From a virus (taxonomy: Duplodnaviria > Heunggongvirae > Uroviricota > Caudoviricetes), in the IMG/VR virus record IMGVR_UViG_2923302340_000011, positions 1-24,319 of that record: DNA of 24,319 nucleotides; one strand, given 5' to 3'. Under the pieces are notes generated by a model. That model had not been told where the DNA came from, did not search any database, and was given only the letters and a program-made list of their open reading frames with translations. Shown piece after piece: positions 11,737 through 12,897 of this stretch (within the stretch, counting starts at the first letter, position 1; each line of letters starts with the position of its first letter). The translations under genes and the position numbers were made by a program.

Positions 11737-12657
11737 TTAGTAGTGATGCAGTGAAGGAGGTAATTCTTTGTTCTTAAGTCTTACCCATGCAGAAAGATTC
11801 GTTGGTCCGTCTGGCTCATTAATATCAATATCTCGCGTGTGATTGATTAAAACGTCTCTCGCCATTCCGATAACATACGAGAACTCATGGCCGTAGTCGT
11901 AGCACCTGCCAGAATAGTTTGATTGAATTTGCTTTAGCGCCAGATACAGTTCGCGGAATAATGCCTGTGAGCGGTTGGCATAATCCCATAGCCATACAAG
12001 GCTGTTTGCTTCTTTTGCGGAAAGCTCGTTGGTGCTCTTCTCTTGTTTGCCGATTAACTCTCCTTCAAGCGGAACGCGAGCAGCAAGTGACAGAGCTTCG
12101 GTAAACTGCTCCTCGCTGATTTCTTTGTATGAACACCCAAAATGAGATTTCAGTGACGACCACATGGTGATCATCGCCTTCGCCTGTTTTTCTTTTGGCA
12201 GAGACTGACCGCGACTCATGACGAGTTGCTTAATGGCTTCCTGCTGTTCAGTGGTGATTTTCCCCAGCAATGCCTTTTTAGCTTTGCGCGGGTTAATCAC
12301 ATGGCCTTTAGTCCAGTACTCGTAGAGCACATCGTCACACTCTTCCTGATACTGGATTACCTTGTCGCGAATTTCAGGGCGGACTTTGTTAGGACTGATG
12401 GTTTGGAGCCAACCATTCAGTTTACGCAAAGCAAGGCAAATCATGGTCTGCATACCGCCAACTGAAGGTATTGCGATTTCCACAATACCTTTAGCAAATC
12501 TTTGTTTTAACTTTGTAAACTGTGAAGCCCAATCCATACCCATTCCCTCAACGATAGGTTTCATTGGGGTGTACGGTTCGCCGTTGTGATTGACGACATA
12601 AAGCTCTGCGCCGTGGAATGGCACGTTGATAGTAGATACCGCTGTTGCTATACTCAT
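11737..12657 (-). CDS. ant: Phage antirepressor, P22 Ant-like
   Basis: N-terminal MSIATAVSTINVPFHGAELYVVNHNGEPYTPMKPIVEGMGMDW… resembles the P22 antirepressor N-terminal domain. Start chosen at ATG 12657 (AAGGAA Shine-Dalgarno) rather than the track GTG at 12711. Confidence 0.7.
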   Translation of the reverse strand: MSIATAVSTINVPFHGAELYVVNHNGEPYTPMKPIVEGMGMDWASQFTKLKQRFAKGIVEIAIPSVGGMQTMICLALRKLNGWLQTISPNKVRPEIRDKVIQYQEECDDVLYEYWTKGHVINPRKAKKALLGKITTEQQEAIKQLVMSRGQSLPKEKQAKAMITMWSSLKSHFGCSYKEISEEQFTEALSLAARVPLEGELIGKQEKSTNELSAKEANSLVWLWDYANRSQALFRELYLALKQIQSNYSGRCYDYGHEFSYVIGMARDVLINHTRDIDINEPDGPTNLSAWVRLKNKELPPSLHHY

Positions 12658-12660
12658 TTC

Positions 12661-12731
12661 GTTAGTTCCTTGGAAGTTACTGACATAGAAGCCCGATTTG
12701 TGTTCGCGCACTGTCGGGCTTCGCTATTTTT
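12661..12731 (+). ncRNA. Candidate sar-like antisense RNA, about 70 nt, complementary to the ant ribosome-binding region
   Basis: Plus-strand promoter TTGATA (12626-12631), 17-nt spacer, TATACT (12649-12654). Intrinsic terminator: 9-bp stem GAAGCCCGA (12688-12696) / TCGGGCTTC (12714-12722) followed by a T-run (12727-12731). Same layout as the P22 sar RNA between arc and ant. Confidence 0.5.
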
Positions 12732-12897
12732 ATGTCCTAGCATTCTTCTCTCCAATCAGTCCGTACACTTTTCTCAATTGATAAATAAGTTCCGTGTTGA
12801 ACTGTCGACACTCTTTTTCTCCATTTCTTTCAATCGCCTTCCTTACATCCTCTGGGAAACGAACCTTGCGTTGATACATGTCTTTTGCTTTTTCCAT
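12730..12897 (-). CDS. arc: Arc-like ribbon-helix-helix repressor (55 aa); not in the supplied ORF track
   Basis: Hand translation gives MEKAKDMYQRKVRFPEDVRKAIERNGEKECRQFNTELIYQLRKVYGLIGEKNART. AAGGAG lies 5 nt upstream of the ATG at 12897. Resembles the P22 Arc fold region (…FNLRWPREVLDLVRKVAEENGRSVNSEIYQRV…). Confidence 0.65.
   Translation of the reverse strand: MEKAKDMYQRKVRFPEDVRKAIERNGEKECRQFNTELIYQLRKVYGLIGEKNART

Follow-up and report, generated by a model that had tools for sequence, protein, structure and literature searches.

Does the short gap between an arc-like gene and the antirepressor gene ant of a lambda-like Escherichia coli prophage hold, on the strand opposite to both genes, a small RNA of the kind known as sar in phage P22? 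The question concerns a 24,319-nucleotide stretch of a Caudoviricetes genome (IMG/VR record IMGVR_UViG_2923302340_000011), hereafter called the window, for which an original prediction made from the letters alone had proposed a sar-like antisense RNA covering the ant translation start. The region has the sequence features and the fold of such an RNA, is homologous to P22 sar and is under selection. In our judgement it very probably encodes a sar-type cis-antisense small RNA acting on ant as in P22; its transcription, exact ends and repression of translation would follow those of sar, by analogy with the work on P22. The argument turns on the following features.

12626..12631, + strand: Psar-like -35 hexamer TTGATA, within ant codons 9-11 (promoter scan)
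12646..12654, + strand: extended -10 element TGcTATACT, with the TG at 12646-12647 and the -10 hexamer at 12649-12654, reverse complement of ant codons 2-3 (AGT ATA)
12661..12731, + strand: predicted sar-like antisense RNA of about 69-71 nt, with a predicted +1 at G12661 and a predicted 3' end in the U-tract
12661..12684, + strand: hairpin 1, with a GUUAGU/ACUGAC stem and the anti-Shine-Dalgarno sequence UCCUU (12667-12671) in its loop (minimum free energy fold)
12688..12722, + strand: hairpin 2, the terminator stem-loop GAAGCCCGAU...GUCGGGCUUC (-20.7 kcal/mol)
12725..12731, + strand: U-tract UAUUUUU, overlapping the arc-like stop codon (complement of 12730-12732)
11737..12657, - strand: ant, the target gene, encoding an antirepressor of 306 aa (Pfam P22_AR_N 152.7 bits and P22_AR_C 97.6 bits; same start codon in RefSeq)
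12730..12897, - strand: arc-like small ribbon-helix-helix gene (55 aa), 5' of ant (Pfam Arc 19.1 bits, against a cutoff of 20.4)

The predicted +1 is the seventh nucleotide after the -10 hexamer and lies 3 nt upstream of the ant ATG (12655-12657), and the predicted RNA spans the 72-nt gap between this codon and the arc-like stop codon (12730-12732). The ant Shine-Dalgarno sequence AAGGA, located 9 nt ahead of the ATG, is complementary to 12667-12671. As regards the proposed coverage of the translation start, the Shine-Dalgarno sequence and the whole intergenic region are indeed covered by the predicted RNA, but the start codon is not, with +1 at 12661. Folding of 12661-12732 yielded -28.3 kcal/mol (z = -4.74), a value equalled by none of 200 shuffled sequences. 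The hairpin and T-run terminator that had been placed at 12688-12731, reaching the arc stop, were recovered by folding and sequence inspection as a hairpin at 12688-12722 and a U-tract at 12725-12731, the tail after hairpin 2 reading GCUAUUUUUA. An automated terminator scan missed this hairpin, whose outer stem encloses not a loop of 3-8 nt but a 15-nt interior, formed by a 4-bp inner helix with bulges.

The promoter scan found TTGATA and TATACT, 17 nt apart, at 12626-12654 on the + strand, as originally placed; the -10 hexamer had been said to overlap the ant start codon, but it ends at 12654 and abuts that codon (complement of 12655-12657). Ten of the 12 consensus positions are matched, and the TG of an extended -10 is present in addition. 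Markov simulation gave an expectation per window of 2.3 promoter sites with at least 10 of 12 matches, and of 0.18 when the TG is included. The combination of the promoter with its position, the fold and the conservation is significant.

The RNA nature of P22 sar has been established by experiment (Liao et al. 1987; Wu et al. 1987; Schaefer & McClure 1997, as reported by sources citing them), and only for P22 is it known that sar represses Ant synthesis post-transcriptionally, acting both in cis and in trans. The annotation of the P22 genome places sar at 15021-15090 and its promoter inside ant, at 15097-15125, with the terminator ending at the arc stop codon. The geometry of the window matches that of the annotated sar, Psar and terminator nearly to the base, which agrees with the earlier claim of a design shared with P22 sar. 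The RNA of P22 and the one predicted here both run antisense through the arc-ant intergenic region and include the complement of the ant ribosome-binding site; in both phages, the promoter lies within the first ant codons, facing away from ant, with TGCTATACT of the window -10 block identical in P22 Psar. Both RNAs are about 70 nt long and form two hairpins, with an anti-Shine-Dalgarno sequence in loop 1 and a terminator at the arc stop; the window prediction, at 69-71 nt, fits the description of an RNA of about 68-69 nt with two stem-loops and a rho-independent terminator at this stop codon. Also common to the two are the outer stem of the terminator, GAAGCCC...GGGCTTC, and TTACTGACA, which makes up the 3' arm of the first stem. 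By contrast, the loop-1 sequence and the inner half of hairpin 2 differ, as does the -35 hexamer (TTGATA in the window, GTGTTA in P22). The window ant has one codon fewer before the -10, the RNA starting at -4 from the ATG instead of -1 as in P22, and the window has the stronger U-tract, with more U than the tail of P22 sar, AACUUUAC. The host phages are different as well: the element of the window belongs to an E. coli prophage of the lambda-like siphovirus type, where the module is located between tail genes L and K, whereas the P22 module belongs to a P22-like podovirus.

Conservation was assessed among ant loci gathered by protein similarity, not by RNA similarity, 80 of them from IMG/VR and others from records of phages and of E. 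coli. A promoter pattern, TTGAT(N)-17-T(A/T)NA(C/A)T followed by CAT, was present in 89 of 91 sequences (the window and 90 loci), the two exceptions being P22, whose -35 differs, and one locus carrying an insertion of 6 nt. The promoter spacer varies in sequence at constant length, and the -10 remains TAnACT even where the encoded residue changes (TACACT, TAAACT). Downstream of the promoter, the RNA region occurs as several sharply different alleles. All 25 distinct RNAs, folded singly, formed the same two hairpins, with a start at +1 or +2 and UCC or CUC in loop 1, and the ten distinct arm combinations of stem 1 found in relatives all pair.

A covariance model, R1, was derived from 13 alleles, none of them from the window, P22 or Salmonella phage vB_SosS_Oslo (hereafter Oslo). 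Its one significant match in the window was at 12658-12729 on the + strand (31.3 bits, E 1.9e-5), the other match being a weak one to the same hairpin on the opposite strand (11.7 bits, E 0.61); these E-values are rough, owing to a short calibration. The model scored P22 sar at 50.2 bits, thus linking the element to the defined sar through an independent profile, and the window element is on these comparisons a diverged, unannotated homologue of P22 sar. When 32 distinct sequences were aligned by fitting to the model, 94% of the cells were paired and 11 of the 19 pairs had changes on both sides, hairpin 2 contributing 7 covarying pairs out of 14; such counts, taken from a structure-fitted alignment, lean towards the structure, the single-sequence folds being the safeguard. 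None of 500 shuffles reached the observed values for pairing and covariation, and slid controls paired at 33-45%. Judging from these comparisons, promoter and helices have been under purifying or compensatory selection.

The element is kept in more than 100 loci from many genera, at a constant position relative to ant. R1 matches (E < 0.01) abut the ant start in about 20 of 68 species-representative genomes with an ant homologue, and the genera with matches include Mangrovibacter, Erwinia, Mixta, Raoultella, Klebsiella, Xenorhabdus, Pectobacterium, Yersinia, Photorhabdus, Proteus and Providencia. One match lies on a contig of an Armatimonadia metagenome-assembled genome (L148, among L093-L160), which may be due to contamination. 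Distant ant loci, such as those of Acinetobacter and Chromatium, gave no R1 match at E < 0.01, the best being two Acinetobacter loci (E 0.1 and 0.42); in these loci the RNA is either absent or beyond the reach of R1. The exact window allele is rare, being found at an identity of at least 99% in one of 5,426 complete E. coli genomes. E. coli Res13-Lact-PEA14-20 (NZ_CP062871) shows 99.7% identity over a 701-bp query, 12400-13100. In the Stx-type phage YYZ-2008 (L090 1406-1700), an 'empty' stretch of about 690 bp upstream of ant, in the gap between tail genes K and L, holds a sar-like RNA (R1 39.1 bits) and an arc-like reading frame ending at the terminator, both of which are absent from the annotation of the record.

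Several observations weigh against the assignment of a sar-type RNA to this region. Besides the leaning of the covariation counts mentioned above, the promoter match by itself is at chance level and not significant, hairpin 1 alone is weak (-4.5 kcal/mol), and GC intervenes between the stem and the U-tract, which is itself broken by an A. MAFFT combined with RNAalifold on 18 alleles recovered hairpin 2 only, stem 1 having been aligned in two registers, and was replaced by the per-sequence folds and the model-based alignment. Lastly, the Rfam model for sar (RF00262; gathering threshold 43 bits) had no match in the window, even at E <= 10. In a positive control, however, the same model scored P22 at 97.8 bits; it is evidently too narrow and captures only P22-like alleles, and for this reason its failure was not taken as evidence against homology. 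No other Rfam family reached its gathering threshold in the window, and only noise appeared at E <= 10 (e.g. symR at 16.5 bits and CRISPR direct repeats).

The same RNA region is also found next to another type of antirepressor. In phage JEP4 (L091 1451-1580) and in a prophage of E. coli O111:H- (L092 1451-1580), an RNA region with 88% identity to that of the window precedes an antirepressor gene whose product has an N-terminal domain of the Bro-N family, a Pfam family other than P22_AR_N. The first codons of this gene contain the promoter TTGGAA-18-TACAAT with TGc, TGCTACAAT occupying the position equivalent to the extended -10 of the window, and hairpin 2 of JEP4 shows a compensatory change from A-U to G-C. 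Retention of the promoter in the Bro-N gene is a strong argument for selection on the promoter itself, as opposed to its being a by-product of the Ant coding sequence. The antisense cassette thus appears to move between unrelated antirepressor genes.

A protein encoded on the + strand by the open reading frame 12586-12996 was considered as well and rejected: this frame is antisense to arc and is broken by indels between alleles, which are not multiples of three (e.g. loop 1 of the window and that of JEP4 differ by 4 nt).

The strand on which selection acts needs to be considered with care, since compensatory changes cannot tell the selected strand and the same helices form in the ant leader. 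The hairpins could act only in the sense direction, within the arc-ant mRNA leader (by way of processing, stability or partial termination), leaving the + strand promoter motif unused; a 10/12 promoter match is, after all, not rare. We nevertheless regard this explanation as improbable. Read on the - strand, the strong hairpin has UAUGUCAG after it, without a U-run, and therefore makes no terminator in that direction. Moreover, the G-U pairs observed in stem 1 of P22 and of the window, as well as the U-G and G-U pairs of stem 2, correspond to A-C or C-A mismatches on the other strand, which favours the + strand RNA as the selected molecule. The fixed 17-nt spacing between -10 and -35 and the start of helix 1 at +1/+2, both kept across alleles, also speak against a role in the sense direction only, as do the positions of promoter and helix 1 maintained across two antirepressor N-domain families and the experimentally established status of P22 sar.

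Mosaicism of the locus suggests another explanation. Homology breakpoints fall at the edges of the element, namely at 12654 (Stx-type phages), 12670 (S.Kent, CUS-3) and 12732 (Oslo). In Oslo (L002 1622-1750), hairpin 1 of the window (GTTAGTTCCTTGGAAGTTACTGAC) is joined to a different hairpin 2, which places a recombination joint inside the small RNA gene, between its hairpins. Phage CUS-3 has an annotated interval just upstream of ant, the boundary sequence bsq2; this label designates a recombination junction and not a gene product, whereas the interval contains a sar-like RNA (R1 93.2 bits) and the present data argue that an RNA gene lies within it. The conserved blocks could accordingly be seen as mainly recombination boundary sequences at mosaic module junctions, kept for exchange and with no RNA made, in agreement with the breakpoints, the bsq2 annotation, the hairpin 1 common to Oslo and the window in the absence of a common hairpin 2, and the different genes found after the terminator between loci. 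However, the compensatory changes, the promoter spacing and the anti-Shine-Dalgarno sequence in the loop are left unexplained, and as a full account this is very unlikely. A boundary role is compatible with an RNA and is probably true as well, being an added property more than a true alternative. That a promoter-like motif and an unrelated hairpin should have come together by chance, for which the expected 2.3 promoter-like sites per window might plead, is extremely improbable and effectively refuted by the comparative data, given the fold z-score of -4.74, the lack of any other significant R1 match in the window and the conservation at the same place in more than 100 loci.

For a sar-type antisense RNA, the expected course of events can be outlined as follows. 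RNA polymerase would start at the sigma-70 promoter inside, and opposite to, the first ant codons, transcribe the arc-ant intergenic region for about 70 nt and end at the intrinsic terminator, the U-tract of which meets the arc stop codon. The resulting RNA would be fully complementary to the ant leader, with the loop of hairpin 1 presenting the anti-Shine-Dalgarno sequence, and its pairing with the ant mRNA would occlude the ribosome-binding site and hold the synthesis of Ant down. Ant, unless limited, would inactivate the main repressor of the prophage. In P22, convergent transcription from Pant interferes with Psar, and sar acts mainly after Arc and Mnt have shut Pant down.

On a more speculative note, sar might be more than a peculiarity of P22, namely an antisense cassette that is portable, exists as diversified alleles, recombines both as a unit and between its hairpins, and has been grafted onto unrelated antirepressor N-domains, the hairpin-1 alleles forming specificity groups at the RNA level. 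This proposal is a tentative one, and we would sooner expect it to need revision than to hold in full. Such a cassette may include the first antirepressor codons (Met-x-Ser/Ile-Ile/Val-Ala, i.e. the Psar -10 read backwards). If it is true, co-resident prophages would not cross-silence each other's antirepressors, a form of RNA heteroimmunity like that of P1/P7 c4.

A hairpin 85-87% identical to hairpin 2 of the window, followed by a T-run, was also observed in E. coli satellite-like islands with primase and Icd-like genes (L162 1171-1250 and L161 1201-1247). It is antisense and lies immediately upstream of the start of the Icd-like gene, in about 100 E. coli genomes. Neither an Rfam match nor a clear promoter was found for these Icd-adjacent elements, which could represent another antisense RNA sharing the terminator module.

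The genetic setting of the RNA is that of the mnt-arc-ant module, which includes these further features.

13021..13395, + strand: mnt-like ribbon-helix-helix gene (124 aa), divergent (Pfam Arc 30.6 bits)
12936..12983: overlapping divergent promoter-like sites, Pant-like from 12964 to 12936 (- strand) and Pmnt-like at 12955-12983 (+ strand) (promoter scan)
11700..11719, - strand: terminator-like hairpin with T-run, directly 3' of the ant stop codon (sequence scan)

Over its full length, Ant shares 56% identity with the Ant protein of P22. The N-terminus of the mnt-like protein matches the structure of P22 Mnt (1mnt, E 0.0015). The arc-like gene is presumably co-transcribed with ant, and its homologue in TL-2011b carries the annotation Arc-like repressor. 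A search of PDB sequences with the arc-like protein returned designed proteins only and no match to Arc; weak Pfam evidence and synteny point to a putative arc, with a function predicted on the same grounds. By domain content and arrangement, ant and the arc-like and mnt-like genes make up a genuine P22-type immI module.

This module sits between two lambda-like tail genes, L at 13412-14110 and K at 10945-11721, on the tail-operon strand (10376-14439 examined, together with L085), and is flanked by terminator-like hairpins at 13386-13403 (- strand) and at the 11700-11719 site listed above. The RefSeq annotation of the module region contains no RNA. The host element is an E. coli lambda-like prophage adjoining bioA/ybhB, with the effector genes EspJ and EspS aboard. 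Among the overlapping promoter-like sites between the arc-like and mnt-like genes, a palindrome, CCCCACcGTGGGG, is present at 12965-12977 and a related copy, CCTCACTGTGGGGCA, at 12915-12929; the core of the former resembles that of P22 Omnt, CCACCGTGG. Both are candidate Mnt/Arc operators.

Other phage antisense systems offer partial parallels. The c4 RNA of P1/P7 (immI: c4-icd-ant) is likewise a small RNA blocking the ribosome-binding region of an antirepressor operon, and c4 allelic differences define heteroimmunity in these phages. However, c4 arises by processing of the transcript that also carries its target, and its action is on upstream sites, whereas the window element is a predicted convergent cis-antisense RNA. 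It does not belong to the C4 family (P1/P7 c4, P4 CI): no Rfam C4 match and no sequence similarity were found in the window, and the orientation is convergent. The OOP and anti-Q (aQ / P22 a23) RNAs of lambdoid phages resemble it in being short cis-antisense RNAs with promoters inside or next to the target; they have constitutive or activated promoters and help to set the lysis-lysogeny balance. They have other targets (cII/c1 and Q/23), which they overlap at the 3' end or in the gene body instead of at the ribosome-binding site, and they are not homologous to the window RNA. A literature search for sar-like RNAs in lambda-like or Stx prophages, or for sar allele diversity, found only mentions of P22 and P22-like (epsilon34) phages.

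The mechanism itself is textbook knowledge, and finding it here is largely expected and will not surprise specialists. What is added concerns the Rfam family, which is much too narrow, the wide occurrence of the cassette in lambdoid and Stx-type prophages, and its swaps between unrelated antirepressor genes. The analysis provides an effector-carrying (EspJ/EspS) lambdoid E. coli prophage with a previously unannotated, predicted regulatory RNA gene, which would explain how the antirepressor of this prophage stays silent. Diverged sar-type RNAs precede ant in Stx-type and other prophages and in many genera of Enterobacterales, where they have been missed by RefSeq and Rfam. These RNAs matter for modelling how prophages of pathogenic E. 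coli are induced and engage in cross-talk, given that antirepressors of the Ant type are able to trigger induction.
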